From positions 1 through 64,000 of the IMG/VR virus record IMGVR_UViG_3300020576_003018: 64,000 nt of DNA; one strand, 5' to 3'. Made by a program: the position numbers and the translations under genes. This DNA comes from a virus (taxonomy: Duplodnaviria; Caudoviricetes). Positions within the stretch are counted from its first letter, which is position 1; the number at the start of each line of letters is the position of its first letter. The notes beneath the pieces are model-generated. The model was not told where the DNA came from and searched no databases. It saw nothing but the letters and a program-made list of their open reading frames with translations. Of the stretch, positions 35,064 through 63,728 are shown piece after piece.

Positions 35064-35382
35064 ATGGAGAAGAACAACTACAAGCTTGTTGATCCTTACC
35101 TTGTTGGGTTCCATCCGGATCTTCTTGCAGAAAATTGGGTGAAGCGAAGTGATACGATCAGACTCTTTGACTATTTTGACCTATCAACCATTTACTTCCC
35201 GAAAGGTGCGGTGTTTTTGGTTTATGCAACTTTTGATCATGGACTCTTAGAAACCCCCCTACTTGGAAGTAATTGGACCAAACGGCGAAAAACATTCTTA
35301 CACCGTTCGGTATAACAACGAAACAGATAAGGAAAAATTCATCTTCATTCCCATCAATGTTTCGGTGGATTCAGAACCATGA
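35064..35382 (+). pseudogene. Small protein interrupted by a +1 frameshift in a C6 tract
   Basis: Removing one C at 35254-35259 gives ETPYLEVIGPNG...DSEP*, whose TGA overlaps the next ATG (35379). Confidence 0.6.
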
Positions 35383-35696
35383 CACCAACAACATACGGTT
35401 CATTTTCTCCTGGTGATTTGGTGGTTCCGAATCTGTCAACCAAAGTGTGGAAAAAAGAGATTGCCCATTTGCTTGCTGTGGAATTCTATAGTAAGAATCG
35501 TGACAATTGGGCCAACACGCTTATCAGCTACAAGTACAAACATTATCCGTTCAACTCGATTTTCCTTGTCACAGATTGTTTTCTCACAGGCGACTATCAT
35601 GGCGAGTATTGGGTTATCGAAACCGTCTGCCCCGATGGAGCAATTTTGGTCTTTTCGGAAAACTATTTTGAGTTGTTTAAGGAAGCAGCACCATGA
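35379..35696 (+). CDS. Small paralog-family protein (CPDG subgroup)
   Basis: FSPGDLVV...IFLV...VCPDGAI...FELF. Confidence 0.75.
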   Translation: MTPTTYGSFSPGDLVVPNLSTKVWKKEIAHLLAVEFYSKNRDNWANTLISYKYKHYPFNSIFLVTDCFLTGDYHGEYWVIETVCPDGAILVFSENYFELFKEAAP

Positions 35697-35977
35697 GCAA
35701 TCACAATTTCAAACCGGGAGATTTGGTACGCGGAACACCAAACTGTGAAGAAAAGCTGTTTCGGTTTATGGATGCGGAATGTACCGGAACAAGGCTTAAT
35801 GCGTATACTGTCCGGCAATACCCAGGAGACTCATTGTTTATTGTCTTGGAATGCCTGTTTGTTTCAAACGCGAAATTTGGGTTACAACTCAACAATTTTT
35901 TGGCTGTTCGAGTTGCTTGTCCCGATGGAAGAATTGCGATTGCCACACAAGGGTATTTCACAAAGTTTGAGCCATGA
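35693..35977 (+). CDS. Small paralog-family protein (CPDG subgroup)
   Basis: FKPGDLVR...YPGDSLFIV...VACPDGRI. Confidence 0.75.
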   Translation: MSNHNFKPGDLVRGTPNCEEKLFRFMDAECTGTRLNAYTVRQYPGDSLFIVLECLFVSNAKFGLQLNNFLAVRVACPDGRIAIATQGYFTKFEP

Positions 35978-36008
35978 CCAGCAATTCTTTCAGAAGGAAA
36001 TCAAATCA

Positions 36009-36257
36009 ATGAACAACAGGAATGGCCGAGCAGTGGTTGGAGATTTGTTGGCACTTGGACACGGACAAAAGGATGTGTTTGATTATTCAACAGCCTCGTT
36101 TCGCACCTACCCAGCCAACTCACTGTTCTTGATTTGTGCGCTGGATGCCAGTTGGGGCAACGAAGCACTCTTACTTTGCCCAGACGGCAATTTAATTCGT
36201 GGGGAACTTACCCCTTTCAAAAAAGCAAAAGATTCCAAAAATGATGAGCAACATTAA
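36009..36257 (+). CDS. Small paralog-family protein (CPDG subgroup)
   Basis: VVGDLLA...YPANSLFLI...LLCPDGNL. Confidence 0.7.
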   Translation: MNNRNGRAVVGDLLALGHGQKDVFDYSTASFRTYPANSLFLICALDASWGNEALLLCPDGNLIRGELTPFKKAKDSKNDEQH

Positions 36258-36612
36258 AGTTGGAGATTTGGTTTGTTTCAAGGATGAGTATGGAAGTCAT
36301 AACGAACGAGAAGTCCGCATTCTTCCAAGACCTTCAGATTCTGGCAAGGGTCACTACTGCATCTTCAATTACGTTAACGACAAGTGGATCGTGGTGCCGA
36401 GCAGGGAAGGAATTGACCCCGTTGTTGGGCGCCACGCATTTGATTACTTCCTTATCATTGAAACCCACCCAGCAGAGAACAAGTTCCAAACCAACTTCAT
36501 TTCCTTGCTTTTTTCAGATGGAAGTGTGATTTTAGCAAACGCGGATGATCTTGATGAAGAAAGGACGATCCATGCAAATTCTGAGGAAGAACTCGTACAG
36601 GAAACCCCCTGA
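36241..36612 (+). CDS. Small paralog-family protein
   Basis: IKVGDLVC...YFLII...LFSDGSV. Confidence 0.7.
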   Translation: MMSNIKVGDLVCFKDEYGSHNEREVRILPRPSDSGKGHYCIFNYVNDKWIVVPSREGIDPVVGRHAFDYFLIIETHPAENKFQTNFISLLFSDGSVILANADDLDEERTIHANSEEELVQETP

Positions 36613-36886
36613 AGTCGGACAACTTGTTCGGTTGCGAGGAGAACTCGATGAAGAGTTCTGGGCCAGGATGGATGGTAGACCTTTCGATCCTGAAAACCCG
36701 AAGATGACAACAATTGACTATCGTGGGCACGGACGGATTTACTTTGGCCAAAACGATCTTTTCGTGCTTCTTGACTCCTATAGCCTTTTTGATAGGGTTA
36801 TGGCTCTTTTGTTGACTCAGGAGGGTAAAAAGATTCTGGTTGTTATGAGCGCAGTTGACAGCACTCCCATTCTCATGGTAGAGTAG
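36572..36886 (+). CDS. Small paralog-family protein
   Basis: PEVGQLVR...NDLFVLL...LTQEGK. Confidence 0.7.
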   Translation: MQILRKNSYRKPPEVGQLVRLRGELDEEFWARMDGRPFDPENPKMTTIDYRGHGRIYFGQNDLFVLLDSYSLFDRVMALLLTQEGKKILVVMSAVDSTPILMVE

Positions 36887-36890
36887 CTTC

Positions 36891-37184
36891 ATGGCAACAT
36901 CGCTGAAAGAGCCCGAAATCGGCAAACTGTATTGGATTCGTCAATTCCCAGAGCCCTTTCTCAACAACTCAACCATCCCGCTGAGTGATTGTTTTGGAAA
37001 ACAGTTTCGCTTTACACCTAACCTGGACCCGGGTTTGTGTTGCGGCTCTTTCCTTTTCTTGACACCCGATGGCAAACAGTTTGAATGGTACATCAAGGTT
37101 CTCGACAAATCACTCGAATCTGCCAGCACCTTTCCAATCACGGGACTTTATCTCGAAGAAGTGAAGGATTTAGATGATGAATGA
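36891..37184 (+). CDS. Small paralog-family protein (GKLY subgroup)
   Basis: PEIGKLYW...FLTPDGK...YLEEV. Confidence 0.75.
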   Translation: MATSLKEPEIGKLYWIRQFPEPFLNNSTIPLSDCFGKQFRFTPNLDPGLCCGSFLFLTPDGKQFEWYIKVLDKSLESASTFPITGLYLEEVKDLDDE

Positions 37185-37536
37185 TAAGCAAAAAGAAAAG
37201 GTTGAGGTTGTTTCAACTGATCCTGTTCCGGATAAGCTGTACCGTCTCATGAATAGAGGAATGGACAAACGAATCCGAGGTTATCACCCGAAATCAATGC
37301 GGTTTGGGCGTTCTTTCATCTTTGATGACGAAAATGCTTTTCTTCTTTGCATCCCGCCCAGAAATACGGAAGAGAATAGGCAGTTTTGCCCGACTTTTGT
37401 TTGCTCTGACTCCGGTGAAATCTTCACTTGGAGTTTGAAGGTACTCCCAGTGAACTATCAACCGAAATCCGGCGAGGAAACTTTCGGATGGAGTTGTTGG
37501 TTGGTTGAAGTGGAGTGTGACAAAGACAATGAGTGA
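37174..37536 (+). CDS. Small paralog-family protein (GKLY subgroup)
   Basis: PVPDKLYRL...FLLCIP...FVCSDSGEIFTW...WLVEV. Confidence 0.75.
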   Translation: MMNDKQKEKVEVVSTDPVPDKLYRLMNRGMDKRIRGYHPKSMRFGRSFIFDDENAFLLCIPPRNTEENRQFCPTFVCSDSGEIFTWSLKVLPVNYQPKSGEETFGWSCWLVEVECDKDNE

Positions 37537-37807
37537 CAACGACAATCACCAACCAATTTCTGGCAAGCTGTACCGTGTGGCGAATTGTGCCTGGAAATCT
37601 CTCTCAACTCACGAGGGACCAGTGATTGAATTTGATTCCGCAACACAATTTCTTCTTTGTCTTCCCCGAAGAAAAAACTTGCCAGGGTTTGACTTTTTTC
37701 TGGTAAGTGGCACCGTTCATATATTCGCTTGGTTGGGTCCGAAAACAGAGGAGAGCATTTCCGACGTTTGGTTGCAAGAAGTGAAACCGGAGGAAACCGA
37801 TGGATAA
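37529..37807 (+). CDS. Small paralog-family protein (GKLY subgroup)
   Basis: PISGKLYRV...FLLCLP...FLVSG...WLQEV. Confidence 0.75.
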   Translation: MSDNDNHQPISGKLYRVANCAWKSLSTHEGPVIEFDSATQFLLCLPRRKNLPGFDFFLVSGTVHIFAWLGPKTEESISDVWLQEVKPEETDG

Positions 37808-38129
37808 TCGACCCTTTCCAACACCCGGAAAACTATATCGTCTAATGCCAACAACCACCATACAAATTTTTTCGTTTGTTAGTCTTGACAGGCCATACGG
37901 CGATCCCTTCGAAATAGATTCACAGGTAAATCTATTTGCTTGCTTGCCGAATTTGGAGAACAAGAAAAAAGGGCAGCACTATCAAATGTTTTTGGTCAGC
38001 GGCATTGGTAAATTGGTTGCATTTGGTTTATACGAATCAGAGGTTGTCTTCCCTTTGCGAGTTGGACAGGATCCGAAAAATCCTTTGACCTTTCATTTGG
38101 TTGAAGTCGAGGAAGAAGAAGAAGAATGA
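37800..38129 (+). CDS. Small paralog-family protein (GKLY subgroup)
   Basis: PTPGKLYRL...LFACLP...FLVSG...HLVEVEEEEE. Confidence 0.75.
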   Translation: MDNRPFPTPGKLYRLMPTTTIQIFSFVSLDRPYGDPFEIDSQVNLFACLPNLENKKKGQHYQMFLVSGIGKLVAFGLYESEVVFPLRVGQDPKNPLTFHLVEVEEEEEE

Positions 38130-38506
38130 GAACAATGGAATGGTTGTTGTGGAACGAAGAGGGAGAAAGAGAATGTTTTCGAACAGAGGAGATGGATAAA
38201 CAAGCTTTGTTTGAGAAGATTTATGATGTTGTTGTAGAGGAAGGTGGAGATGGAGACATGGCTGTCGTGTTTTCTCCCGAAACTCATTGCCATCGAGAAA
38301 TCGCAAATGATTTTCAAGTGTTTCTTGAAGAGAAAGACCCAGGTGAGTGGCACCGATGGAACATGAGGGTTGGAAGTGACATTCACTTTTCCCGAGATCA
38401 AGAGCGGTTTACGTTTGCTAATGACGATCATTTTTGTGAATATGGCGAACAGTTGACAGGGTTCCAACCCGTCTCAAACAAGGTTGTTGTTTATGAATCC
38501 CTCTGA
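38126..38506 (+). CDS. Acidic hypothetical protein
   Basis: 126-aa ORF coupled on both sides. Confidence 0.65.
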   Translation: MRTMEWLLWNEEGERECFRTEEMDKQALFEKIYDVVVEEGGDGDMAVVFSPETHCHREIANDFQVFLEEKDPGEWHRWNMRVGSDIHFSRDQERFTFANDDHFCEYGEQLTGFQPVSNKVVVYESL

Positions 38507-38756
38507 GATTTTTGCCACGAATCCAGTTGTTGGTCGGTTGTACCATGTGCGTGCTAATCCACTTTTACTACCATCAAGTGTGAAAATGGTTGTGGTTTGT
38601 TACCTTGACAATGGCGAATATTTGGCTGCTGGGAGTGGGAAATCAATGACCTATTCCGGTCTCTGTGTTTTCGAACCTGGGGTCGTTGAAAAGAGTGGAT
38701 ACGAAATCCCACACACGATGATTTGGCTGGAGGAAGTGAAAACGGAGGAAGAGTAG
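38493..38756 (+). CDS. Small paralog-family protein (GKLY subgroup)
   Basis: PVVGRLYH...WLEEV. Confidence 0.7.
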   Translation: MNPSEIFATNPVVGRLYHVRANPLLLPSSVKMVVVCYLDNGEYLAAGSGKSMTYSGLCVFEPGVVEKSGYEIPHTMIWLEEVKTEEE

Positions 38757-39064
38757 TGAAAACAGAACACAGGCCAGTTCCTGGGAGGCTTTATCGGGTT
38801 ATGAAATGCCCCGATAGTCACAATGATCACATAAAATTGCTTGCTTTTGAGGGACCGGCGCGGATTTATGGGACCGAGTTCATTTTCAATTGGAAGGAGG
38901 GCTTCTTTCTTTGCTTGCCTCACAGAAAAGATTTGCCCGACTGTGACATGTTTTTGGTAAGCGGCACCATCAACACAGTTGTTTGGTATGGTCTTACAAC
39001 GAAGCCTAGACAGGATTGGCTGTGGCTAGAGGAGGTTTCTGTTGAAGAAGAAGAAGAAGAATAA
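38756..39064 (+). CDS. Small paralog-family protein (GKLY subgroup)
   Basis: PVPGRLYRV...FFLCLP...FLVSG...WLEEV. Confidence 0.75.
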   Translation: MKTEHRPVPGRLYRVMKCPDSHNDHIKLLAFEGPARIYGTEFIFNWKEGFFLCLPHRKDLPDCDMFLVSGTINTVVWYGLTTKPRQDWLWLEEVSVEEEEEE

Positions 39065-39368
39065 AAATCTTCCCGAAGTTGGAAAGTTGTATCGACTTTT
39101 TTGCGAGTCGGACGACGGTGTGAAGCTTTCTGTGGCTTATGGATTGAATTTGGAGGAGAATCTCCTGGTTTGCATTCCAAACGTTGTTACCAATGGAAGG
39201 CCAACGCAATCATTTTTGGTTTCGGGGACGGGTGAATTTTTTCATTGGTGCTTTGTGGACACGGAACCTGACAAACACCATCAACTGGAAGTGTGGGTCA
39301 AAAAATCCATCCATCCCAGTGGCTATACAACTTGGCTGGAGGAGGAGGTTGACACCGATGTTGAATAA
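39042..39368 (+). CDS. Small paralog-family protein (GKLY subgroup)
   Basis: PEVGKLYRL...LLVCIP...FLVSG...WLEEEV. Confidence 0.75.
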   Translation: MKKKKKNKNLPEVGKLYRLFCESDDGVKLSVAYGLNLEENLLVCIPNVVTNGRPTQSFLVSGTGEFFHWCFVDTEPDKHHQLEVWVKKSIHPSGYTTWLEEEVDTDVE

Positions 39369-39753
39369 GGTCCGGGAACACTTTTGGTTTGTTTATGCAA
39401 CGAAGGAAAAGGCATTGGAGCAGTATGGTCAATTTGTTCACGAACATGAAGACCCATATGTTTGGCTCGCTTATGTGAGTGAATCGGAACACTGGGCTAA
39501 TAATTGGATTGGCCACAAGAATAAGACACATAACAGCAACATTATTGGTCTTTTGGTTCCTGGCGACAATTTTATCGTTTTGGGAAAGGTCACAAGAGCC
39601 CACCACGAATCTCTGCGGACTGATACAATTGTTCGTGTGTTGTCGGGCAATGGGTTGGTCGGCTGGGTAATCCAGCCTCACACACATGAAGGCAGTTCTT
39701 CTTTTTTTGAGGAGATTGAGGTGTCTGACGACGAGGGCGAGTGGGGGAGTTGA
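39358..39753 (+). CDS. Small paralog-family-like protein
   Basis: PGDNFIVLG...RVLSGNGLVGWV...FEEI. Confidence 0.65.
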   Translation: MLNKVREHFWFVYATKEKALEQYGQFVHEHEDPYVWLAYVSESEHWANNWIGHKNKTHNSNIIGLLVPGDNFIVLGKVTRAHHESLRTDTIVRVLSGNGLVGWVIQPHTHEGSSSFFEEIEVSDDEGEWGS

Positions 39754-39777: not shown

Positions 39778-41236
39778 ATGTCTGCATCACCACACAGCCT
39801 TCAAACACTTCTGAAAGCCTTCATTGTCCTTGAAGCAACCAGATTCAAAAGAGAAACCAAGTCACGACTTCCCAGGTGGACTGAGAGGTTGATTGCATAC
39901 GAGCAACAAAAATCGTGTGGATGGAAACCTGTTCATTCACTTTTCAAGGTTTCCGAAAATGGGACTTTACCTCAAAAACTCATACAACACCCCAATTGGC
40001 TTCTACGCCTATCCACTCATTGACGAATCAATCAGTTCCTTTGCCGTTGAAAGACCTTTCATGATCATCGTTAAACCCAAACCGGAAGCAAGGCTTTTGG
40101 ATTTATCGAGGTATACAGAAGAACAGTTGAAACAGGATGGGGAGAAGCTGAAAACTGCTGGGTTTGATCCAAATGTTGTTGACGAGGCAACAGAAAAAAC
40201 AAAAAACTTCTGGGATTTGTCTGGGGAATCTTCTGGTTTCCCTGGTAAGAAGATTTGGGATCTCACAAGGATTTTATCTGGAACGAAGGTTGGAGAAGAC
40301 GAAGATGGTAATGATGTGACAAATCCACTTTCTTCGGGAAAGGAGGGTGGAGGTCCAACGGCACGGTGGTCTTACATTTTCTGGAAGGTGCTTGGATATG
40401 ATGGAGTGGTTGACAATAACAGTATTGGAATCATTCACCCCAACGAACCAAACCAAGCTGTGTTTTTCAACACGACGAAACTGGAAATTGTTGATGTGAT
40501 TGAGAAGGAGGGTAAGGAAGAAGGCTCATACTACCCAGCCCATAAACTTTTTTCAAAACCACAGCAAGCTATTTCTGGCGATGACTATTCTAACCAAGAA
40601 ATTGATGATTTGCAACTGACAAACGCGATGGTTCTTGGAACCGACTTCACCAACTCGACAATCAAAAATTCCAAGATGATCTTTTCTCGTCTTGGAGGCT
40701 CCAAGTTCATCAACGCCAAACTCAACAACGTTGTTTTCACCAACTCCAACCTCGCAAAAGTTAAGCTTGTTGGAGCGAGTTGCTATGAATGCTTCTTTGA
40801 TTCCTCCCAGTTTTTTCAGACTAAAGCTCGTGGTGCAAGGTTTACACACTGTAATTTCACTCGAACAACCAATAGTGAGTCTGATTTCTCCAACACGGAA
40901 ATTCGTCAGTGTTCTTTCTTGGAAGCAAATTGTTCCTACACCAGTTTTGAGAATGCCAAATTTATTGGCACGAAGATATCTGGGGGGGCTTTTCAAAACT
41001 GCAATTTCACAAATGCGGACATGAGAGGAATAAACACCGATGGGAGCGTTGGATTTGTCAATTCGAGATTCGCTGGTGCTGATTTGAGGGGCGTTGACAT
41101 GAGTGGTTGGATTTTGTATGGATCATCCTTGACAAACCTACCAAACAGGTTCGCAAAAGCCATCTACAACTCCAGTACGAAGTTTCCACCCAACCTTGAT
41201 CCAGCCGAAGAGGGCATGAGACTGGTAGACGATTAG
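39778..41236 (+). pseudogene. ART-like domain + pentapeptide-repeat fusion protein, split by a +1 frameshift in an A5 tract
   Basis: The 39778 ORF (TATTTA upstream, IVLE N-terminus) joins the 39893 ORF if one A is removed at 39908-39912. FIHFS/PIGFYAYP/GYDGVV/NEP.QAVFF motifs are followed by about 20 pentapeptide repeats. Confidence 0.7.
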
Positions 41237-41238
41237 GG

Positions 41239-41267
41239 TTGACATGAGCAAGCGGTGCTGGTACTCT
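41239..41267 (+). promoter_or_regulatory. Sigma70-like promoter, 7 nt from ATG
   Basis: TTGACA, 17 nt, (TGg)TACTCT, 7 nt, ATG 41275. Confidence 0.8.
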
Positions 41268-41274
41268 CCAGACC

Positions 41275-42144
41275 ATGAAGGAAATCCTGATCCCATCCGA
41301 CGAATATCAGATTCGTTTCTACTGTAACACCAAAACTTCCAAAACCTGCTGGTTTGATTGCAACCCAAAAGAAGACGGAACTTACATTGAAATGACCCTG
41401 TGTGAAGCGTTCCGATATGCTTCTGAGGATCGTTCGGTAAAGTGTCCCCACTGTGGCACAAGAATGCAACCAGATTCTCACATCCGACACAAAGAAAAGA
41501 CTCAGGCAGAAATCCTGGAATCAGAGCTTTGGCAGTTGACTGATGATGAGGTAGTGGAAAGTTGGTTAGATGATTACAGGGAGGCAACTAGGGCTCACAT
41601 GGACTCTCTTTCAGATGATGAGTTTTTGAAACAGGTTCTTCCGCATGAGCTTGTTTTTGTTTACGGAACCCTCAAACGAGGTTTTGGAAACCATTCATAT
41701 TTGAACGGTTCTGAGTTCCTTGGCATTGGGGTTCTTAGAGACTCAAGGATGGAACTTGTTAGTTTGGGTTTCTGCCCAGCGGTTGTGAAAGTTCATGAAG
41801 AGAAAGGGAATGGAGTTGCTGGGGAATTGTATTCTGTAAATCACAAAACCCTTCGCCGCCTTGACGCTCTTGAGGGTAATGGATTTCTATATGCCCGAGA
41901 ACAGTTCGAGGTTGATTATTACTGCCACAAAACAGAAACAACGAAGGCTGCTGTGGCCTGGGTTTATGTCCTCCTGGAAAACAACCTCGAACCACTGACG
42001 AGCGATGATCGTGTCAAGCACGTTGCTGTTGCTGACAATTCTTTCTTGTCAAGGTCTTCAAGCTGTGTTGGTCTTGATGATGCTGGGATTCAACACTGGA
42101 TCAAACAAGAGGAACTCAAAGAACCTTTTGAGTTGACCGAATAG
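41275..42144 (+). CDS. Gamma-glutamylcyclotransferase (AIG2-like) with Cys-rich N-terminal domain
   Basis: VFVYGTLKRGFGNH, VAGELY and LDALEG...Y.R motifs; N-terminal C...C...CPHC. Confidence 0.85.
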   Translation: MKEILIPSDEYQIRFYCNTKTSKTCWFDCNPKEDGTYIEMTLCEAFRYASEDRSVKCPHCGTRMQPDSHIRHKEKTQAEILESELWQLTDDEVVESWLDDYREATRAHMDSLSDDEFLKQVLPHELVFVYGTLKRGFGNHSYLNGSEFLGIGVLRDSRMELVSLGFCPAVVKVHEEKGNGVAGELYSVNHKTLRRLDALEGNGFLYAREQFEVDYYCHKTETTKAAVAWVYVLLENNLEPLTSDDRVKHVAVADNSFLSRSSSCVGLDDAGIQHWIKQEELKEPFELTE

Positions 42145-42176
42145 TAGTTACAAAAACAGGAGTATTTGAAGAACAA

Positions 42177-43514
42177 ATGAGTATGGAACAATACCGGAAG
42201 CAAATTCGTGAAATGGTTAAGAAAGAGTTTGTTTCTCGATTCACAGTGGTGAAAGAGGCTGTTTATCGCGGAAGCAACTATCCAGAGTTTTGGAATGAGT
42301 TTCCAACGGGAACCCCAACGAAAGAGGTTACACCGTCCGTGACAAAGCATGATTTTGTTCGGCGTGTGATGAAGGAGCTTAACAGCCCAACAAACACACC
42401 AGCATCCAGAATCTATCTGGAGCCGGAAGCAAGGGCAAATGCAATAGCAAGGCTCACTCCTCTCATGGATAATCCCGATCAGTTTATTGAAGAGTTGAAC
42501 AAGGAACGTGAATTGTTTTTTGGTGGTGGAAGTCTTCGTTCTTCTCCCGATCCTGTTGCAACAATTCTCCAACAGTACGCAGCAGACAAGTCTGTTTTGA
42601 AAAGTTTGTCTTCCAAGGCTGTGGCAAACTACAAACTTCGCGGTGGAGAAGAAGAGGAAGAAGAAACATCCCAGACAACTGGGTCGGAGGGATCAGGTTT
42701 TGGAGATGATGACAAACCCGCAACCGGGCACGGTGAAGGTGACAAAATCATTCGAAACATTCGTGACATGATTGCAGCAGATCCAACCGAAGTTGGAACA
42801 ACGCAAGGCGTTCACAGTCGGTTGAAGAAAGCCAAAACACTTCTCAGCAAACCAGAAGTCTTCCAGCTTATGATGTTCTTGAAAAACAAGAACGTTTCTG
42901 AGGAAGACAAGACTGATGCGCTGGCGGATCTTCAAGTGGTGAATTCTCTGGCTGACGAAGCCACAGGCAACTACACTGAATTGTTTGTGGATTCTATGCT
43001 TCCCTCACTGAAAAACATCGCTGATGTTGATAACGACGATGAGCGTTACTCTGCACTTGAAAAAGGAATTCAAACCTTTGTTGCTGGTCTGAAAAAACAA
43101 GGTGTGAAAGAGTTCAACAACAACGAACTTCCTGTGTTTGTTGATGCGCTTTCAAAAGAACATGGAGAATTTACCGTCCTTGACCTGTTGATTCTTGTTG
43201 CCAAAAACCCTGGAAAGAGTTCCCAGCACTGGCAAACTGCATTTGAGTCTTTGAAGGATTCATTCTCCAAAGAGGCAGACAAACAAACAAACTTCAACTC
43301 TCTGGGAGAGTTTATTGACGCTGACCCAGAAATGAAATCTGCAAGGAAGGAATTGTTCGACACGATTGTGAGCGTTGGTAGGCCAACAATGTCCGATGAA
43401 GAAAAGGCTGCTGCGAAAGCTGCCAGAGATCAAAAAAAGGCTGCTGAAAAGGCTGCTGAAAAAGCCGCAAGCGATGCAAGGTATGCAGCATACCTTGCCT
43501 CCAAAAAACGCTGA
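42177..43514 (+). CDS. Large helical hypothetical protein, possibly virion-packaged
   Basis: 445 aa, acidic, with a KAAEKAAEK tail. Confidence 0.7.
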   Translation: MSMEQYRKQIREMVKKEFVSRFTVVKEAVYRGSNYPEFWNEFPTGTPTKEVTPSVTKHDFVRRVMKELNSPTNTPASRIYLEPEARANAIARLTPLMDNPDQFIEELNKERELFFGGGSLRSSPDPVATILQQYAADKSVLKSLSSKAVANYKLRGGEEEEEETSQTTGSEGSGFGDDDKPATGHGEGDKIIRNIRDMIAADPTEVGTTQGVHSRLKKAKTLLSKPEVFQLMMFLKNKNVSEEDKTDALADLQVVNSLADEATGNYTELFVDSMLPSLKNIADVDNDDERYSALEKGIQTFVAGLKKQGVKEFNNNELPVFVDALSKEHGEFTVLDLLILVAKNPGKSSQHWQTAFESLKDSFSKEADKQTNFNSLGEFIDADPEMKSARKELFDTIVSVGRPTMSDEEKAAAKAARDQKKAAEKAAEKAASDARYAAYLASKKR

Positions 43515-43520
43515 TAGGAC

Positions 43521-43889
43521 GTGAAGTCAACCGTCATGCTTTCAAATGTTCTGAAACGTTTGTTCCCTTCACTTGTTGATGGGATCGACACAACCCTTCT
43601 TCACAACCTTCAATCAGATGGGCAACACTGCTCCTTTGACTTGAAGTTTGAAACGAAAGAGGATATGAACAACATGATGTTTTACATCATGAGTCTCCAT
43701 CACGACAAGACTGTCCATCTCCATTTGAAAATTGTTGGTGATGATGTGTTGCACGTTGTTGTAGAACACAAACCAGACGCCTCCAAGGATCTGTTGGAGA
43801 TTTTGGTTTACGACATTTGTGACAAAGCAAACAAAGTCTCTGCGATTCATCTTCCTTCTTCCTCTCAACCTCCAACCCTCCGACTCTAA
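43521..43889 (+). CDS. Hypothetical protein
   Basis: 122-aa ORF in a plus-strand run. Confidence 0.6.
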   Translation: MKSTVMLSNVLKRLFPSLVDGIDTTLLHNLQSDGQHCSFDLKFETKEDMNNMMFYIMSLHHDKTVHLHLKIVGDDVLHVVVEHKPDASKDLLEILVYDICDKANKVSAIHLPSSSQPPTLRL

Positions 43890-43918
43890 ACCCACAACCC
43901 AAAAGGATTGAATTTCTC

Positions 43919-44479
43919 ATGAAAGTCCAGATTGACAATCAGGGCAATCGCTTCTATGTTTCAGATGGAACCCCAGAAATCGTTTCGCCAGAGCAACCTC
44001 CTCTTCCTCCTGTGAAATCAGAAACAGAGCCTCTCAGGGCTTTGTTTTTTAACAGTGCCAAGGATTGTAGGGCTTGGTTGAAGGAATCAAAAGAGATTCC
44101 TTTGGCAAATGGTGGCGGTTACAGGGATTTTATTCCTCCAACCGTCTCCACTGATTCTCCATTGGCGGAAGTAATCCTAAACAGCTTCAAGCTCGACGAA
44201 AAAAAAGAACACGACACACTTTTTACTGTTTGTTTGTTTGATGGAGTCGTAGACACAAAGTCTCTAAGCGAAATCTACAAATCCAAGGCAAGAAATAGTG
44301 GTTCTACCGAGGCAAGACTGTTTGTCTGTTTTTCTGGATGGAGTGGAGTGGAGTTTGGCGTGTTTGAGGTTAGTTTTATGTTCTGGCATCGGTTTTCTGC
44401 CACGCCAATCAAAGAAACACCTGGGTTGTTTCAAGTAGATTTCATGTGTCGCGTTAGAAACCACTGGCTCGACTTCTGA
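43919..44479 (+). CDS. Hypothetical protein
   Basis: 186-aa ORF with AAGGA RBS. Confidence 0.6.
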   Translation: MKVQIDNQGNRFYVSDGTPEIVSPEQPPLPPVKSETEPLRALFFNSAKDCRAWLKESKEIPLANGGGYRDFIPPTVSTDSPLAEVILNSFKLDEKKEHDTLFTVCLFDGVVDTKSLSEIYKSKARNSGSTEARLFVCFSGWSGVEFGVFEVSFMFWHRFSATPIKETPGLFQVDFMCRVRNHWLDF

Positions 44480-44503
44480 TAAGGAGGATGGCTATTTAGG
44501 GTC

Positions 44504-44977: not shown

Positions 44978-45234
44978 AATCACTGAGCGAAGTCCTTTAC
45001 AAGAAAACCTTCGTGAGAAGGAAACCTCAAGGAGAGGAAAACTTCGTTTATGGAGACAAGACTGTTGGTGTTGAAACCAAGAAACACTACGAAATGCTTT
45101 GCAAGACTTTGATGCACCTGGAAGCTTTGAAGAGTGTCTATCCCAGAGGTTCAGCCAACAGACACATCCTTTCTCAAACTTGCTCGCGGCTGAAAAGATT
45201 GATTGCGAGACTTGAGAAAAACCTTCTTGACTGA
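44974..45234 (+). CDS. Hypothetical protein
   Basis: 86-aa ORF coupled by ATGA overlap. Confidence 0.6.
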   Translation: MKSLSEVLYKKTFVRRKPQGEENFVYGDKTVGVETKKHYEMLCKTLMHLEALKSVYPRGSANRHILSQTCSRLKRLIARLEKNLLD

Positions 45235-45255
45235 TGGGTGAGGTTGTGGTACTCA
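45227..45255 (+). promoter_or_regulatory. Sigma70-like promoter, 6 nt from ATG
   Basis: TTGACT, 17 nt, (TGg)TACTCA, 6 nt, ATG 45262. Confidence 0.7.
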
Positions 45256-45261
45256 CGCTGC

Positions 45262-55326: not shown

Positions 55327-55827
55327 ATGATGACGAACAACTTGGGGCTGCTGGAAAAGCAGGTGATTTTGATGTTGGGTGTTCCTGGTGCTGGGAAGAG
55401 CACCTATATTCGAGGGATTCCTGGGGAAGTGGTTGTGGCATCTGCCGACCATTATTTCATTGACCGTGAGACGGGCCAGTACCTTTTTGACGGCTCTCAA
55501 CTGGGTCGGGCACACTCAGAGTGCTTGGCCAAGTTCAAGGCCGCTGTTATTCGTCCTGGAGCGATTACGGTGGTGGTAGACAACACCAACACCCAACTGA
55601 AGGCACTGGTTCCCTACGTCGAGTTTGCAAACCAACACGGAATCATTCCAACTCTGGTTCACATCGTTGCAGATCCCAAGGTTGCAGCAGCGCGAAATGT
55701 CCACGGAGTTCCCGAGGACAGCGTGATGAACATGCACAACAGGCTTCAAACCCTCGTGTCTATCCTCAAGGGAAGCAATCACTTTCCGAACAAGCCCGAA
55801 TGGAGGTATAACTTTGTTGAAGTCTAA
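55327..55827 (+). CDS. P-loop polynucleotide kinase (AAA_33 / N4BP2-like)
   Basis: GVPGAGKST, SADHYF, VVDNTN and RNVHGVP motifs. Confidence 0.88.
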   Translation: MMTNNLGLLEKQVILMLGVPGAGKSTYIRGIPGEVVVASADHYFIDRETGQYLFDGSQLGRAHSECLAKFKAAVIRPGAITVVVDNTNTQLKALVPYVEFANQHGIIPTLVHIVADPKVAAARNVHGVPEDSVMNMHNRLQTLVSILKGSNHFPNKPEWRYNFVEV

Positions 55828-57532: not shown

Positions 57533-57853
57533 ATGAACAACATTTTCGTTGGTGACTTGATCAGGGTGAGTTACGAAGCGTCGTCGAAACTTTGGGGAGA
57601 TTACTGGATAAGGGGCGACAAAGGAATCCCAGCCGGAATTCACGGCACCAGAATCAGTGATATTGATGATGATATGAGAACGCACTTTATCCCGGACGGT
57701 ACAATACTACCAGTTCTGAGCATCAAAACGATAAAAGACGAGGACCGCTCTCTATTTGAAACGTTTCTCGTACTAGATTCCAGTGGACGACTTCTCTGGG
57801 TCGATGAATCATTCGTAGAAAAATATCAACCCGAACTCAAAGAAACCCAATGA
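57533..57853 (+). CDS. Small paralog-family protein
   Basis: IFVGDLIR...LVLDSSG.LLWV. Confidence 0.7.
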   Translation: MNNIFVGDLIRVSYEASSKLWGDYWIRGDKGIPAGIHGTRISDIDDDMRTHFIPDGTILPVLSIKTIKDEDRSLFETFLVLDSSGRLLWVDESFVEKYQPELKETQ

Positions 57854-58140
57854 ACAACAACAACAATGAGTTGAAAGTTGGAGGTTTGGTTGAGGTTTAT
57901 TCCTCCCGATTCATAACCGTTGGTGGAACCCCCATTGACATTTCTCAGCCAATGAAAGCCGTCAAAATTGGTGAAGTTGGAGTTGTGCTTGGATTTTTCA
58001 GATCTTTTCCTTCTTCTTCCAGGGCTTGGGTTCCTGTTTTATTTGCCAGCACGGGCGAAACGCTCCTGGTGAGAAAGGAATATCTCCGACAAATTCCCAC
58101 ATCAACAGATGAAGAGTATCCTAGCAATGCGACTGTTTGA
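57850..58140 (+). CDS. Small paralog-family protein
   Basis: LKVGGLVE...GEVGVVLG...WVPVLFASTG. Confidence 0.7.
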   Translation: MNNNNNELKVGGLVEVYSSRFITVGGTPIDISQPMKAVKIGEVGVVLGFFRSFPSSSRAWVPVLFASTGETLLVRKEYLRQIPTSTDEEYPSNATV

Positions 58141-58420: not shown

Positions 58421-58450
58421 AAAGCATCCTGGAGCGATTGAAGGGTATGT

Positions 58451-58795
58451 GTGACAATGACGTGGGAGTATGACAAGGTTGAAGTTGGAGAACTGTTTTT
58501 CTGGAAAGGGGGCAGTTTTTCTGTGTTGAAGGGGGAGAACCTGTTGAATATCTTTTCTGTTCCTGGGTTAGCTGGGACCGATGTGCTATCACAAAAAGCA
58601 ACAGAGGTTGAATTGATGGATGGAATGTCTTTGTTGGTGTTGGAGAAGAGGTATACGAACACGAGGAATCCTTGGGTTAGAGTGCTGCTGTCAACCCCCG
58701 AAAAGACTTGGGAAGGTTGGGTCTCACAACACAGAATTCGTTGTCATGTCGGAAAAACAGATGGAGAAGTGGTATTGTGGATCAAAAGTTCATAA
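58451..58795 (+). CDS. Small paralog-family protein
   Basis: VEVGELF...LLVLE...WVRVLLSTPE...EGWV. Confidence 0.7.
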   Translation: MTMTWEYDKVEVGELFFWKGGSFSVLKGENLLNIFSVPGLAGTDVLSQKATEVELMDGMSLLVLEKRYTNTRNPWVRVLLSTPEKTWEGWVSQHRIRCHVGKTDGEVVLWIKSS

Positions 58796-59107
58796 ATCCA
58801 ATTAATGAACCAGAAAAACTGGTTGTTGGTGGTCTTTACGAAGTTAGGTTTATTGACCACACAACAAAGATGGTTTACGCTCATCAGAATAGCAGTGGAA
58901 ATTACATCCATGATCTTTTGAGAGTCGGAGACCTTTTTTGTGGTTATGGAACCCTGGGACAAGGAAAGGGCAACTCAACAACGGAAGTGCTGGTTTTCCA
59001 GAGTGAATGCTCCCGGATTTATTACAACCTCGACACGGTATTTGGTAGGCGCCAGAAGTTTTTTGGTTCTTCAAATTGTCGGTGATGATGAAGAAGGAGG
59101 AAAATGA
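58777..59107 (+). pseudogene. Small paralog-family protein with a +1 frameshift in a T6 tract
   Basis: LVVGGLYE. Removing one T at 58934-58939 restores GDLFVV and a TGA overlapping the next ATG (59104). Confidence 0.7.
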
Positions 59108-59397
59108 GTGACAAAAACAAACTCGAACCTTTCCCATTTTTGGAAATTGGCGGGTTGTATACCATTGTTGAACTCGAGAGAAAGTTGAGAGAGCTCAACT
59201 ATTGTGTTTGGTTATGCTGGGAAAATAAACACATTGTTCTGCCGATATCAACCATGATCTTTTACCTCGGGAACCATAGGTTTATGGCCCCTTGTGGGCA
59301 AAAAGGGTATCTCATTTTTTCAGGTTTTAGATCAGAAATTGGCATCAAAAACCAACTTGTCAAGATTGAAACAACGGCTGTTGAAGATGGCGCATGA
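59104..59397 (+). CDS. Small paralog-family protein
   Basis: LEIGGLYT...IFYLG...APCGQKGYL. Confidence 0.7.
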   Translation: MSDKNKLEPFPFLEIGGLYTIVELERKLRELNYCVWLCWENKHIVLPISTMIFYLGNHRFMAPCGQKGYLIFSGFRSEIGIKNQLVKIETTAVEDGA

Positions 59398-59705
59398 TGA
59401 ACAAGGTTGTTGTTGGAGGCTTGTACCGACTGAACCAATATGCTTTGAACAAGCAAAATCGCAGAGAACACAGAACACATTACAAGCGCAAAAACGGCAG
59501 TGGAGTTTATGGCGTTGTAGATGGCACAATGCTGCTAACTTGCTTATCCCAGACAATCGGACTTTTTGGCGAAGACGCTTCGTTGTTCCTGGAGCCAGAT
59601 CTTGGTGTTATCAGGCTGATTACGACCAAGGCTTGGTTCGAGATGTATTTTGAACTCGTTGAAACAAACATGGAGGAGAATGATCAGCCGCCAGAAAACC
59701 CTTGA
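59394..59705 (+). CDS. Small paralog-family protein
   Basis: VVVGGLYR...FELV. Confidence 0.7.
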   Translation: MMNKVVVGGLYRLNQYALNKQNRREHRTHYKRKNGSGVYGVVDGTMLLTCLSQTIGLFGEDASLFLEPDLGVIRLITTKAWFEMYFELVETNMEENDQPPENP

Positions 59706-59736: not shown

Positions 59737-60873
59737 ATGTTCACCACTCCGATCCATCCCGCGCTTTCTTTCTCCTTCCAGGATTTGGTCCAGGGCCTTG
59801 AAACCTGGGTCCAGGAAGGTTCCATTCTTCGTTCGGATTCTATCCAGGCAAATGGCAAGGTGCTTTCGATCTACAACTACTCCAAGGGTTGTCAGTTCGC
59901 TCGCAACTGGAACCAATGGACTGTCATGGCTCGTGGTTTGATCCTGGAGCATGAGTCCGTTGATAACCGTACCACTGGCCGAATCGTCGCGATTCCTTTC
60001 CCGAAATTTTTCAACGCAACCGAACAAGAAGGCGCAAAGTCTGTTCGTTTTGACGATTCTGGATTCGACATCTTCAAGAAGATGGATGGAAGCCTTGGGA
60101 TCGTTTACCATTATGATGGTTCGTGGCGTGTTGCCACTCGTGGTTCTTTGAACAGTGATCAAGCTGTCTGGGCAACCAACTGGATCAACGAGCGTCCACA
60201 AATTCTTGCTGCTCTTGACAAGGATGTGACTTATCTTTGTGAGATCATCTATGAAGCCAACCGCATTGTCATTTCTTACGACTTTGAAGGTCTTGTGATG
60301 CTGGGAGCTTACAACCGTGTCACTGGTCACGAGCTTTCCTATGACTCACTTGATGGGTTGTGTGGAAAGGTTGGAATGCAGATTGCCCAGCGTTACAACT
60401 ACACCACTTTCGAGCAGATCGTTGATGTGTTGAAGGTTCTTCCTGGGACTGAGGAAGGTTTTGTTATTCGATTCCGGGAGACTGGTGATCGAGTAAAGAT
60501 GAAGGGTGAGGAATACTGTGTTCTTCACCGCTTGATTTCCAACATCACTCCTCTGTCGATCTGGAACCTTTTGGTTCTTGGTCATGATATGGATTCTTAC
60601 AAGGCTTCAATGCCTGAAGAGTTTTGGGGTGATATCGACAACATGCTCTCGTTCTTCATGCGGAAGCGGGACGAGATTTTCCAGGCTGTTCTTGTTGCTG
60701 CCAAGTCTGTTGAGCATCTCTCCGACAAGGAGCTTGGATTGTTCTTGAAGAGTGAATCCAGTCGCAAGGAAATTCCTTGGAGCCTTGTTTTCCCACTGAG
60801 GAAGAAGGGTGAAGAGGCTGTGAAGCAGACCATCCTCCAGCATATCCGTCCCACAGGAAATGTCTGTGCTTAG
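59737..60873 (+). CDS. T4 Rnl1-like RNA ligase
   Basis: IYNYS, ARGLI, PFPKFFN, motif I KMDGS, ATRGS, LCEI...NRIV and EGFVI...RVKMKG.EY. Confidence 0.92.
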   Translation: MFTTPIHPALSFSFQDLVQGLETWVQEGSILRSDSIQANGKVLSIYNYSKGCQFARNWNQWTVMARGLILEHESVDNRTTGRIVAIPFPKFFNATEQEGAKSVRFDDSGFDIFKKMDGSLGIVYHYDGSWRVATRGSLNSDQAVWATNWINERPQILAALDKDVTYLCEIIYEANRIVISYDFEGLVMLGAYNRVTGHELSYDSLDGLCGKVGMQIAQRYNYTTFEQIVDVLKVLPGTEEGFVIRFRETGDRVKMKGEEYCVLHRLISNITPLSIWNLLVLGHDMDSYKASMPEEFWGDIDNMLSFFMRKRDEIFQAVLVAAKSVEHLSDKELGLFLKSESSRKEIPWSLVFPLRKKGEEAVKQTILQHIRPTGNVCA

Positions 60874-60907: not shown

Positions 60908-61171
60908 ATGGCAAGAATGAAGCCGCAAGCGATGGTCGGCAAACTGTATACCAATAAACGACTCCTCTCCCCCAGTTTCATTTGGCGAGAGATAGAAAAC
61001 GGGCAGTTTGAAGAAGATTGGATTCATCTTAAAACCTTTGTTGTCGTGGGGTTCTTTTTGAAGAAGGAATTGGTTTTTCGCCTTTTGACAAGAGAGGGGG
61101 AACTCGTTCGAATATTGTGGAGTCCATATCACGAATGGATTGAACTCAAAGATACCGAGGGGAATTCATGA
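60908..61171 (+). CDS. Small paralog-family protein
   Basis: MVGKLYT...FVVVG...LLTREG...WIEL; start could be 60860. Confidence 0.7.
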   Translation: MARMKPQAMVGKLYTNKRLLSPSFIWREIENGQFEEDWIHLKTFVVVGFFLKKELVFRLLTREGELVRILWSPYHEWIELKDTEGNS

Positions 61172-61399: not shown

Positions 61400-61723
61400 G
61401 TGCCGAAGAAAACAAAGAGCCCAAGACCTCCTGCCAAAGCAAAAAACCTCGTGGGCAAACTCATGTGTTCGACACATCGTTTGAATCTTTACATTGGCTA
61501 CAAAGGCCCTGGAAGTAATTGGAAACCGGGATTTTTGTATGCAGGACAGAATTTTGTTGTTTTGCGTGCGACGCCACACAAGCAGAAACTTATTCGTGAC
61601 GGTAACGTTTCTGCCTATTTCCTTTACGATTTGGAGATCCTTGCGGCAGGCACAGACACTCCAGCCGCGCTGTTGAGTGTGGATTTGAAACATTTCAAGG
61701 AAGTGACAATTGGTGATGAATAA
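61400..61723 (+). CDS. Small paralog-family protein
   Basis: LVGKLMC...NFVVL...HFKEV. Confidence 0.7.
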   Translation: MPKKTKSPRPPAKAKNLVGKLMCSTHRLNLYIGYKGPGSNWKPGFLYAGQNFVVLRATPHKQKLIRDGNVSAYFLYDLEILAAGTDTPAALLSVDLKHFKEVTIGDE

Positions 61724-62024
61724 CTTGGAGGCAACCCGACACTCCTTGATTGGAAAGCTGGTCAGAGCAAACTTTTTCTCCTTCCCAGTGAACAGGCATA
61801 AATTGGTTATATCGAGCCATGTGCCTTTTGAAACCAGTTTTTTGCTTTTTTCATCTTGTTTCGTTGTGTTGGAAGTTGAGGAAATACCTGAAGGCGCACC
61901 GCGCAAGAGCACTCACCCAGGTGCATTCATGTTAAAAGTCTTGACTGTTCCCGAAGGAATCATTGGTTGGCTTTATTGCTGCGACCCAGCTTGGTTGGTG
62001 GAAATCACAGAGGAAAAACCGTGA
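61716..62024 (+). CDS. Small paralog-family protein
   Basis: LIGKLVR...FVVLE...KVLTVPEGIIGWL...WLVEI. Confidence 0.7.
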   Translation: MNNLEATRHSLIGKLVRANFFSFPVNRHKLVISSHVPFETSFLLFSSCFVVLEVEEIPEGAPRKSTHPGAFMLKVLTVPEGIIGWLYCCDPAWLVEITEEKP

Positions 62025-62366
62025 AGGACAACAAAGATCCGATTGCTGAAAAGATTGCAGAGATGGAAGCCGAGTATCTGGCAAAGAGAGAGAAAACGGC
62101 CTTTACCAGAAGCTGGAAGATTGTATCGAGTTTCTTCTGGTTCCAGCCCAGGAGACTTTTGGCCAAGATGCGCTTACGTTCTGCACCCGAATCCGTCAAT
62201 TGAACGTGATCGAATCACGTTGAACGAAGGCGATTACGTTCACGTTCTCGATTCCACTCCTTCTCACTTTGGCAAACATGCTGTGACCAAAGTTATCACG
62301 CCTTGTGGAAGGATCGCATATATGTCCTCAGTGCTCCTTGAAAGAAATCCAGTGGAAACAGAATGA
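62021..62366 (+). pseudogene. Small paralog-family protein with a frameshift in an AG/A tract
   Basis: GTG 62021 MKDNKDPIAEK... joins KRPLPEAGRLYRV if one A is removed at 62093-62096. Confidence 0.65.
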
Positions 62367-62572
62367 CAACCAACTCAGAACAAAAACGCTTGACAGAGAA
62401 GTTTGTTGGGAAGCTTGTTTGCAGCACCTGCACTTTCCCAAGACTCTGGAACTATAGCGCCACCACATCAACAGAGATTTTGGTCGCCGGTTTTATTCGT
62501 TTTGGCTGGCTCATTCACCCGAACACCAAACTCACTCTACTCTGCCCAGCAAACTCCAATGATGTTCTCTGA
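62363..62572 (+). CDS. Small paralog-family-like protein (short)
   Basis: FVGKLVC; 69 aa. Confidence 0.55.
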   Translation: MTTNSEQKRLTEKFVGKLVCSTCTFPRLWNYSATTSTEILVAGFIRFGWLIHPNTKLTLLCPANSNDVL

Positions 62573-62837
62573 TCCACTCATCCCAGGAAAACTGTATTAC
62601 CTCACAACTCATTCAAAATATAACATCCGGGTCTATCAATACCCACATTCAAAGAACAAAACGAGAGATGAAGATGAACTGGTTGGTGAAATTAGCGTCC
62701 TTGACAGCTTTGTTTATCTTGGCAAAAGCCCAGAAGGTTTAGAACTGGTCTTGCTGGGAGATGGAACGTTTGGCTATATGGATGTTTGGTGTGAATATCA
62801 TCACTTCAAAGAAGTGGTAACAACGGAAGAAGAATGA
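62559..62837 (+). CDS. Small paralog-family protein
   Basis: LIPGKLYY...SFVYLG...LLGDGTFGY...HFKEV. Confidence 0.7.
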   Translation: MMFSDPLIPGKLYYLTTHSKYNIRVYQYPHSKNKTRDEDELVGEISVLDSFVYLGKSPEGLELVLLGDGTFGYMDVWCEYHHFKEVVTTEEE

Positions 62838-63441
62838 TGTGGATTGTTAATGGGTTGTATGAAAATCGCTGCACCGCATATTCCATCAGCGAGGGTTTGA
62901 TCCAGACGGACGGAACCACTTGGGAAAACTCTCGACATCTTGGAAACTTGATGAAAGGTGAGAAATTCGTGTTGCTTGATTGGCAACATGCTCGCCTGAG
63001 CGGGGTTATTCCTCGACGGTCCCACTATAACGTTTTGTTGTTGCGGGTGATGACGTTGGATGGTACAATCGGCTGGATCAGGACAAACGACTCTTACTTC
63101 CACACTGGCTTTGAACTCCTTGCAAGGCCCAATGACAACGAACAACACCAAAAAAAAACGAAGTTCCTTGAACCTTTTCAGCCGTTTGTTGGAAAGTTGG
63201 TGATATGGATAGATGATTGGGGAAGAAATTTGTGGCTTACAGAAGGCTCCACAGGAAACCATTTATGCGGCTCCTTGGAGCCAGACGATTTATTTGTTGT
63301 TCTTTCTCTGGAATTTGCCCGTGACTGTGATGGTGAAGTGTCCAAATTAAAATCCTACACCCCAAATTCGGCGCCGTGTTTGTCGATGTGGTGTATCCAG
63401 ATGATCTCGCCGTTATTTCTTCAGATGAGGAATCAGAATGA
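62834..63441 (+). other. Two paralog-family genes apparently fused by an A9 slip, the second with a GT-duplication frameshift
   Basis: The ORF contains two family units (VNGLYE... and FVGKLVI...). There is an internal ATG at 63132 before the A9 tract, and removing GT at 63338-63341 gives VQIKILHPKFG...ESE* overlapping ATG 63438. Confidence 0.55.
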
Positions 63442-63728
63442 CACAATCCAACAATCCGTTTGAAAAGTTCACAGGGAAGCTTGTGAGATGCTCCTACGCT
63501 GTTCGTTTGGAGACAGATTATTCTGGTGGATATGACAGAATCCCAGCTCAAACCATCTTTCTTGTTCTTGATACGAGTGATGTTGGGTACTGCTGGGAAG
63601 AAGAAGCAAGTCCGGGTGATTTACGATGGGGGTTCGGTTTGAAGGTTTTGACTGCCGAAGGAGTTTTTGAAACCCAAGAAGTCATTCTTGAGTCACTCAC
63701 CATCGTAGAAACAGAAGACAAGGAATAA
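63438..63728 (+). CDS. Small paralog-family protein
   Basis: FTGKLVR...IFLVL...KVLTAEG...LTIV. Confidence 0.7.
   Translation: MTQSNNPFEKFTGKLVRCSYAVRLETDYSGGYDRIPAQTIFLVLDTSDVGYCWEEEASPGDLRWGFGLKVLTAEGVFETQEVILESLTIVETEDKE

Follow-up and report, generated by a model that had tools for sequence, protein, structure and literature searches.

Small plus-strand genes between positions 35064 and 63728 of the phage DNA described here form an array that, as judged from profile comparisons against decoys, is confirmed as one large family of divergent paralogs. The window, by which we mean the whole analysed stretch of 64,000 nucleotides, corresponds to bases 1–64000 of a linear IMG/VR virus record of 77,125 bp (IMGVR_UViG_3300020576_003018; estimated completeness 21%). 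Of the at least 68 members in the studied contig, the window contains 34: 32 inside 35064–63728 and one each at 29287 and 33189. Past 63728, the array continues to the contig end at 77125 with 34 more members. The explanation we favour, and consider moderately probable, is a clade-specific jumbo-phage family that grew in tandem, has since undergone birth-and-death and may supply a co-transcribed repertoire of binding proteins.

The DNA stems from an uncultivated jumbo phage with a genome of roughly 350 kb, an assignment based on the size and completeness of its relatives and on at least 22 tRNA genes and a large terminase of T4 type in one of them. With the embedded Rnl1-type RNA ligase (59737–60873) as an anchor, two relatives were retrieved from IMG/VR: G001 (G1; 82.5 kb) and G002 (G2; 241 kb, 66% complete), the latter being the one with the terminase and the tRNA genes. 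The studied contig itself is labelled G000 (G0). A much closer relative, L029, was obtained from a Logan assembly and shows 93–97% nucleotide identity. The terminases of the nearest known phages, Flavobacterium phage immuto, Microcystis phage Mel-JY01 and the huge phage LR756508, are only ∼39–40% identical. The tRNA genes form a block at the contig end of G002 (238444–241361).

Family members number 69 in G001 and 77 in G002. To qualify as a lineage-specific expansion of a small domain in a jumbo phage, dozens of homologous copies should occur in one genome of more than 200 kb; here, we count 68 copies in 77 kb and 77 in 241 kb. Within a syntenic span of 48.7 kb, the length of which is similar among the relatives (46–49 kb), the family accounts for 67 of the 122 genes and 42% of the DNA. 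The array ranks among the largest gene expansions of a single domain observed in a phage.

Homology among the array members

Genes were called by codon usage combined with tiling, and decoys were used at every homology step. A phmmer comparison of the 106 small plus-strand proteins of the contig yielded 115 directed pairs of at least 10 bits, compared with 1.2 for shuffled decoys. In addition, 701 proteins from three contigs were clustered, the hidden Markov models (HMMs) of these clusters were searched against proteins and decoys, and the cluster profiles were compared with each other by hhsearch, including reversed and column-shuffled profiles as controls. Edges were accepted at HMM scores of at least 14 bits (0.7 decoy hits) or hhsearch E-values of 0.03 or below (zero decoys), and together they unite 28 clusters with 173 proteins into one set. 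At the latter cut-off, at least 26 real pairs were found but not a single reversed or column-shuffled profile. This all-against-all comparison bears out the mutual homology that a first-pass annotation of the DNA had proposed from a shared residue pattern, and the open reading frames (ORFs) it had listed do exist at their coordinates.

The hub links to cluster c1 extend over the full length of the proteins: c0 is joined to it with an E-value of 9e-6 (81 columns), c6 with 1.7e-5 (75 columns) and c19 with 6e-5 (70 columns). A further hub link connects c0 and c136 (E 6.6e-4). Based on the linked set, we built a superfamily HMM, with which another 43 proteins scored higher than any of 2103 decoys (best decoy 9.7 bits). 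Among the ∼150 small G002 proteins elsewhere, it matches almost none, with the exception of those in a second small array at 162–165 kb. This smaller array of family-like genes (162263–164832) lies far from the main one, so the family extends beyond a single locus. Within the window, plain BLAST and jackhmmer at default settings linked no more than two to six proteins at a time; the wider linkage required relaxed filters, the relatives and profile–profile searches. The members in the window, and two look-alikes located between them, are as follows.

29287–29595, plus strand: outlying possible member, 102 aa; superfamily HMM 10.4 bits, marginal against the best decoy at 9.7; G1/G2 ortholog 51–52% identical
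33189–33515, plus strand: outlying member, 108 aa; superfamily HMM 13.2 bits, its orthologs in G1 and G2 19.0 and 20.1 bits
35379–35696, 35693–35977 and 36009–36257, plus strand: subfamily c3, three tandem members with a CPDG turn, joined as a pairwise cluster
36241–36612, plus strand: member; superfamily HMM 18.5 bits
36572–36886, plus strand: member, c82; hhsearch to c3 E 0.0049
36891–39368, plus strand: subfamily c5/c81/c11, seven members (36891, 37174, 37529, 37800, 38493, 38756, 39042) with the pattern FLVSG ... WLEEV plus poly-E
39358–39753, plus strand: member, 131 aa, barrel in the C-terminal half; HMM to c1 18.0 bits, hhsearch to c6 E 0.029 (residues 59–121)
45899–46425, plus strand: two members, 45899–46174 (c6) and 46171–46425 (c19); hhsearch to c1 E 1.7e-5 and 6e-5
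48764–49807, plus strand: subfamily c1, four tandem members (48764, 49033, 49299, 49529), the best-defined SH3b-like group
49791–50129, plus strand: member, c0, by pairwise clustering
50116–50418, plus strand: marginal member; superfamily HMM 9.9 bits
50405–50644: unlinked look-alike between members
50641–50895, plus strand: member; superfamily HMM 12.8 bits
57533–58140, plus strand: two members, 57533–57853 and 57850–58140; hhsearch to c0 E 0.02 (67 columns) and 0.017 (78 columns)
58777–59085, plus strand: member, c134; linked to c1 by hhsearch (E 1.1e-4) and HMM (24.1 bits)
59104–59397: unlinked look-alike between the c134 and c0 members
59394–59705, plus strand: member, c0, by pairwise clustering
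60908–61171, plus strand: member, 87 aa; superfamily HMM 14.0 bits; no ortholog in G1, G2 or L029
61716–62366, plus strand: two members, 61716–62024 (c15) and 62043–62366 (c5); c15–c5 HMM 15.1 bits, c15–c11 hhsearch E 0.011
62559–63728, plus strand: three members, 62559–62837 (c1), 62834–63463 and 63438–63728, by clusters and HMM links

Subfamily c3 is connected to the hub c0 by hhsearch (E 0.0075, 74 columns) and to c13 by an HMM score of 26.2 bits. The 209-aa ORF at 62834–63463 comprises two barrel units, and 38126–38506, located within the c5/c81/c11 run, is not a family member. About ten look-alikes in the window show no significant link (28965, 45613, 50405, 50900, 51177, 58127, 58457, 59104, 61400 and 62363). 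The initial estimate of 40–45 paralogs was therefore of the right order, while the provable count is slightly lower with 34 in the window. Of three outliers named at first (28965, 29287 and 33186), 29287 and the gene at 33189 are supported, and 28965 has no significant link.

Protein features and predicted fold

Median values are 96 aa for the length of the members and 5.2 for their pI; the net charge is –3. A G-x-[LM]-hydrophobic motif is present within the first 35 residues of 85% of them, compared with 22% of the other small proteins and 9% of shuffled members, and 61% carry an acidic tail (at least three D/E within the last ten residues), compared with 18% of the other small proteins. The HMM consensus reads roughly kpGdLyrv – variable – l-pgdlfvvl – variable – fvLlppdGkiglv – lelve – acidic tail. 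None of 214 members contains a hydrophobic run of 18 or more residues that could serve as membrane segment or signal peptide. The proteins are free-standing, and none is fused to a catalytic domain. Because they are acidic and devoid of signal peptides, the members are presumably cytoplasmic.

AlphaFold2 returned two confident models in all, each for a different subfamily. For c1, an alignment of 22 sequences (48764–49807 and relatives) gave an all-beta model with a predicted local distance difference test (pLDDT) score of 86.6, corresponding to a small SH3-type β-barrel of five to seven strands. In Foldseek searches with this model, every top match was an SH3 domain, at marginal E-values; the closest structures are SH3b domains, one from a cell-wall peptidase (2evr) and one from a phage endolysin (4krt). 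The structural neighbours of the Atlas's own model carry SH3_3, and an Atlas look-up of a c0 member found no model. The model of the second subfamily has no strong structural match: its best Foldseek E-value is 0.5, to a β-trefoil, and KOW, CarD-N and Tudor domains are found among its matches. An SH3b-like β-barrel followed by a D/E-rich tail is thus a well-supported prediction for subfamily c1, while the second model is compatible with an SH3-like fold rather than indicative of it. The SH3/KOW-like barrel originally guessed for the whole array is well supported for the former subfamily and compatible with the model of the latter.

No member reached a Pfam gathering score. The best values were 14.9 bits for SH3_3 (cut-off 27) and an E-value of 0.012 for SH3_2; sub-threshold matches to these two families occur in 1 and 5, respectively, of 22 subfamily members, and the member at 39358–39753 has a sub-threshold SH3_3 match. 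PHROGs contained no family for nine of ten members and gave only an E-value of 0.035 for the tenth, and PDB sequence profiles produced either nothing or chance-level matches such as IspH (E 0.018). An exhaustive HMMER search with the c1 profile through 1.84 billion (1.84e9) representative proteins yielded 30 matches with E ≤ 1e-3, mostly of ∼85 aa, and a word-indexed search of 5.8 billion (5.8e9) clusters retrieved 13 unnamed proteins on a handful of contigs. Megablast with 10 kb of the array found no match in cultured phages. The family profile A1 matches 19–20 places in each genome of the clade, but none in T4 (NC_000866; E ≤ 0.05) and none in the three known phages closest to this one. Based on these searches, the family is undescribed and restricted to this clade, in line with the first impression that it belongs to no described family.

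Turnover of the array and its genomic context

Of 41 significant pairs, 29 lie within three genes of each other, and their mean rank distance is 3.7, compared with 23 in permutations; neighbours are indeed more alike, as had been noticed by eye. Since the most similar pairs are neighbours, this pattern points to growth of the family by tandem duplication. The closest paralogs within the contig are 41% identical and near-identical tandem copies are absent, so these duplications are old. Copy numbers of the subfamilies vary between the relatives (c1 5/7/11, c0 18/12/12, c5 6/2/3, c3 3/5/5). The first-pass annotation had considered a gene accordion: the copy-number differences agree with it, but recent amplification is absent, and a strict accordion was rejected because no two paralogs of the contig are similar enough.

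Positional orthologs of G000 and G002 are 52% identical for the family, compared with 82% for non-family genes of the same span, and 48 of 67 members keep such orthologs across ∼50% protein divergence. The ratio of nonsynonymous to synonymous substitution rates (dN/dS; Nei–Gojobori) is 0.26–0.30 for the family, compared with 0.21–0.24 for the remaining small genes and 0.07 for large ones. Relative to L029, the pooled family value is 0.50, and a few genes show solely nonsynonymous changes, at small counts. The genes are under purifying selection, but weakly, and the family diverges much faster than the interleaved enzymes.

Comparison with L029 reveals changes even at ∼95% nucleotide identity. 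L029 harbors an extra paralog adjoining the ortholog of 68693. In G000, most of this extra copy has been lost, and its C-terminal remnant is fused to 68221–68700, giving a deletion chimera of two paralogs. The ORF at 62834–63463 corresponds to two genes in L029 and is a single frameshifted ORF in G000, with its C-terminus out of frame. At 70717–70908, a member is cut by a TAG that is absent from L029 (altered copy, contig 70717–70995). These three altered copies (62834–63463, 68221–68700 and 70717–70995) may represent real decay or assembly errors. Conversely, the L029 ortholog of 64399 carries a stop codon. No L029 counterpart was found for 71245–71490 and 60908–61171, and at 75742–76346 L029 has alleles that are only 52–55% identical. 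Perfect in-frame tandem duplications are present inside members at 49969–50041 (33 nt × 2.2) and 50662–50757 (42 nt × 2.3), and a third in-frame duplication, perfect or near-perfect, lies inside a family gene at contig position 72895–72944 (21 nt × 2.4). They are recent, as the orthologs in the relatives are shorter. Overall, the turnover is one of long-term birth-and-death with unequal deletion and slippage.

Most members leave no intergenic space and abut or overlap their neighbours. The early-type promoters postulated at first found no support: σ70-like sites are no more common than in shuffled sequence (22 compared with 22.5, and 14 compared with 11.5). Instead, the sequence TGnTAGAGT occurs in a few intergenic gaps, exactly 6 nt before an ATG, at 34334, 36879, 48007 and 59725 and, past the window, at 68209 and 71919. 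These are six sites where about one is expected, and a few of them head long polycistronic runs; a TAGAGT-N7-ATG pattern, in contrast to the actual spacing of six, gave no match. TGnTAGAGT resembles an extended –10 element and was also found in G002 at 166105 and 187986. This distribution suggests a few promoters of long polycistronic, possibly leaderless, units. A second repeated intergenic motif was observed around GCATCCTGGAGCGAT, often following CTATAA(A/G)G, at 58424–58438 of the window and in the gaps before 34350, 65097 and 75205, those before 65097 and 75205 having been found by eye. With up to three mismatches, it has five matches compared with 1.2 expected, of which only that at 58424 is intergenic.

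From ∼28 kb to the contig end, mostly small genes follow each other, nearly all of them on the plus strand. Pfam matches among them identify a metallophosphoesterase, a pentapeptide-repeat protein, a GGACT-like protein, an MnmA-like tRNA thiolase, a DEDDh exonuclease, an amidoligase and the Rnl1-type RNA ligase. The following blocks interrupt the array.

39959–45600, plus strand: interspersed non-family genes (pentapeptide-repeat, GGACT-like and others; Pfam)
46910–47965, plus strand: MnmA-like tRNA 2-thiolase within the array (Pfam tRNA_Me_trans, 8.8e-61)
59737–60873, plus strand: Rnl1-type RNA ligase within the array (Pfam RNA_lig_T4_1, 2.9e-17), 92–93% identical in G1 and G2

The genes of the first block are 58–92% identical to their G1/G2 orthologs, mostly at least 80%, compared with ∼52% for family members; the lowest values (58–66%) belong to 41275 and 45262. 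Pentapeptide-repeat proteins constitute a second expanded family, with one copy in the studied contig (39959–41236), six in G001 and 12 in G002, and their cluster, from the three contigs, has 19 members. Two RNA ligases of different families are encoded in the window (25774–26850 and 59737–60873). Scattered through the array are the thiolase, a deaminase-like gene (48302–48739), the DEDDh exonuclease (52552–53127) and a P-loop kinase-like gene (55327–55827). By their sequence, these genes and the two ligases look like an RNA-repair and tRNA-modification toolkit. On the minus strand, the left part of the window encodes glycosyltransferases, an epimerase, an IMPDH/GMP-reductase-like enzyme, a PD-(D/E)XK nuclease and an RNA ligase. 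A sugar-modification cluster (13242–15784 and 20774–21754) comprises two group-1 glycosyltransferases and an NAD-dependent epimerase/dehydratase. According to a review, large clusters of this type are found mainly in jumbo cyanophages (PMC7824862), which may serve as a weak hint about the host.

Interpretation and comparison with known systems

In the explanation we favour, tandem duplication would have generated the family, and birth-and-death would have reshaped it since through gains, losses, fusions, truncations and internal duplications. Its members would be co-transcribed in long operons with the RNA-repair and tRNA-modification enzymes and form a set of binders, each a single domain in which variable loops and an acidic tail accompany a conserved barrel core, that engage host or defence proteins during takeover. 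Such cytoplasmic binding appears to be the most likely function, although we put it forward with low confidence; it is suggested by the fold and acidity of the proteins, by the segments that vary between conserved strands, by the rapid turnover and by the position of the array amid genes for RNA repair and tRNA modification. A little more tentative is the idea of a diversified intracellular SH3-like library, in which every member could be adapted to its own target, either a distinct host or defence protein or a variant of such a protein; duplication, deletion and allele replacement would allow the phage to maintain and reshuffle this library. As a precedent, type IV restriction is inhibited by a phage protein that is likewise small and acidic and contains an SH3-like domain (PMC11322646).

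Several observations weigh against this explanation as a whole. The link network is thin, with 19 of the 32 inter-cluster links being bridges, and the 37–39 kb subfamily owes its connection with the other members solely to an hhsearch E-value of 0.026 and a score of 16 bits. The dN/dS values give no signal of gene-wide positive selection with near or distant relatives, and the similar values of other small genes in the region (0.21–0.24) mean that fast evolution is not unique to the family. Finally, several G000 copies look broken, and part of the array may be decaying.

As one alternative, the expansion would be largely non-adaptive: a duplication-prone, weakly constrained accessory region would gain and lose copies of a tolerant small fold, most of which contribute little. 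The nonsense, frameshift, fusion and deletion-chimera copies of G000 would fit, as would the slippage evident from perfect internal micro-duplications, a dN/dS of up to 0.5 at short distance and the equally fast evolution of other small regional genes. We nevertheless consider it unlikely: dN/dS stays well below 1 at all distances, 48 of 67 positional orthologs are kept in a span of conserved length (46–49 kb), and packaging pressure makes it improbable that 20 kb of junk would persist in four relatives.

The main alternative function, to which we assign a slightly smaller chance, is RNA-related: small LSm/Hfq-like or KOW/Tudor-like barrels that bind RNA or other nucleic acids and tune mRNA or tRNA fate in concert with the RNA ligases, MnmA, the exonuclease and the kinase encoded nearby. 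The interleaving of the array with RNA-repair and tRNA-modification genes, the KOW, CarD-N and Tudor matches of the second model and a small family of divergent LSm-like early proteins in T4 (PMC12152347) all speak for it. Acidity argues against it, as a pI of 5.2, a charge of –3 and poly-D/E tails are unusual for nucleic-acid binders. Moreover, the best structural matches are SH3b and not Sm folds, the family profile finds nothing in T4, and a need for ∼70 different RNA binders is hard to explain.

It is improbable that the array consists of several unrelated small beta-rich families that resemble each other in composition, β-strand periodicity and acidic tails. The small groups joined by direct BLAST and jackhmmer, the many single bridges and the second model without a strong structural match would be expected in that case. 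Unrelated families would not, however, account for full-length hub links (c0–c1 and c1–c6) at E-values far below the 0.03 that no decoy profile reached, for one HMM that scores all members and 43 more proteins above 2103 decoys while passing over almost all of the ∼150 other small G002 proteins, or for a G-x-L motif at the same place in 85% of the members. Least probable are cell-wall- or envelope-binding SH3b modules for lysis or adsorption, as in endolysins, for which the matches to 2evr and 4krt speak; we rejected this reading since no member has an export signal, a membrane segment or a fused catalytic domain, the genes reside in an accessory region rather than in lysis or structural modules, and the SH3_3 score is far below threshold. 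Toxin–antitoxin systems with Kid/CcdB-type barrels were rejected as well, as nothing supports them.

Much of what jumbo phages encode consists of small orphan genes, which tend to be handled as unknowns without relation to each other. In the present 48-kb region, more than half of the genes can be traced to one fold and family. This provides a single handle on ∼70 genes, with one scaffold that allows its variable surfaces to be compared, as well as a natural experiment in the growth and pruning of a phage gene family. Should the members bind host factors, they would catalogue the targets of takeover or counter-defence and supply compact scaffolds for binding; should they not, the array would still set an upper mark for the DNA a phage devotes to one small domain. 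If the library existed as proposed, it would be for a phage what the host-range multigene families are for large eukaryotic viruses and, with 68–77 or more copies, the largest single-domain phage family known.

Among large eukaryotic DNA viruses, amplification of poxvirus K3L and the MGF families of African swine fever virus (ASFV) likewise involve tandem paralog arrays in variable regions, with strain-variable copy numbers linked to host interaction. Gene accordions of this kind are recent, near-identical amplifications, whereas the closest paralogs of our array are 41% identical and its expansion is old.

With bacterial SH3 domains (SH3_3, PF08239), such as the N-terminal domain of the Nostoc NlpC/P60 protein 2evr and the cell-wall-binding domain of the phiSM101 endolysin 4krt, the family shares, at least in subfamily c1, an SH3b-like barrel. 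SH3_3 domains are typically exported and associated with a cell-wall enzyme. In contrast, the array proteins are free-standing (∼96 aa), have no export signal, carry an acidic tail, are neighboured by cytoplasmic enzymes, comprise ∼70 paralogs and reach only 14.9 of the required 27 bits.

Bacillus phage G contains ∼35 copies of a small zinc ribbon, a scale that was termed unprecedented (Iyer et al. 2021, PMC7824862). It resembles our case as a jumbo phage with dozens of copies of one small domain of unassigned role. The present domain is an SH3-like barrel instead of a zinc ribbon, occurs in about twice as many copies in partial genomes, and its turnover is documented here. In the Tevenvirinae, GoF, MotB.1 and Frd.2 represent LSm-like early proteins with a proposed RNA role (PMC12152347). 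They, too, are small, sequence-dissimilar accessory proteins that share a small β-barrel recognised only by structure prediction, in phages with a T4-type terminase; yet T4 has three such members compared with ∼70 and no profile match to our family, whose best structural matches are SH3b rather than Sm. TifA (Orf65) of an enterococcal phage is likewise small and highly acidic, has an SH3-like N-terminal domain and acts against a defence system, type IV restriction (PMC11322646), but it is a single gene with two domains, and the likeness is one of description. Taken together, small-domain expansions in jumbo phages and dissimilar small barrels in T4 were already known; new are the fold and family, the copy number and the documented turnover.

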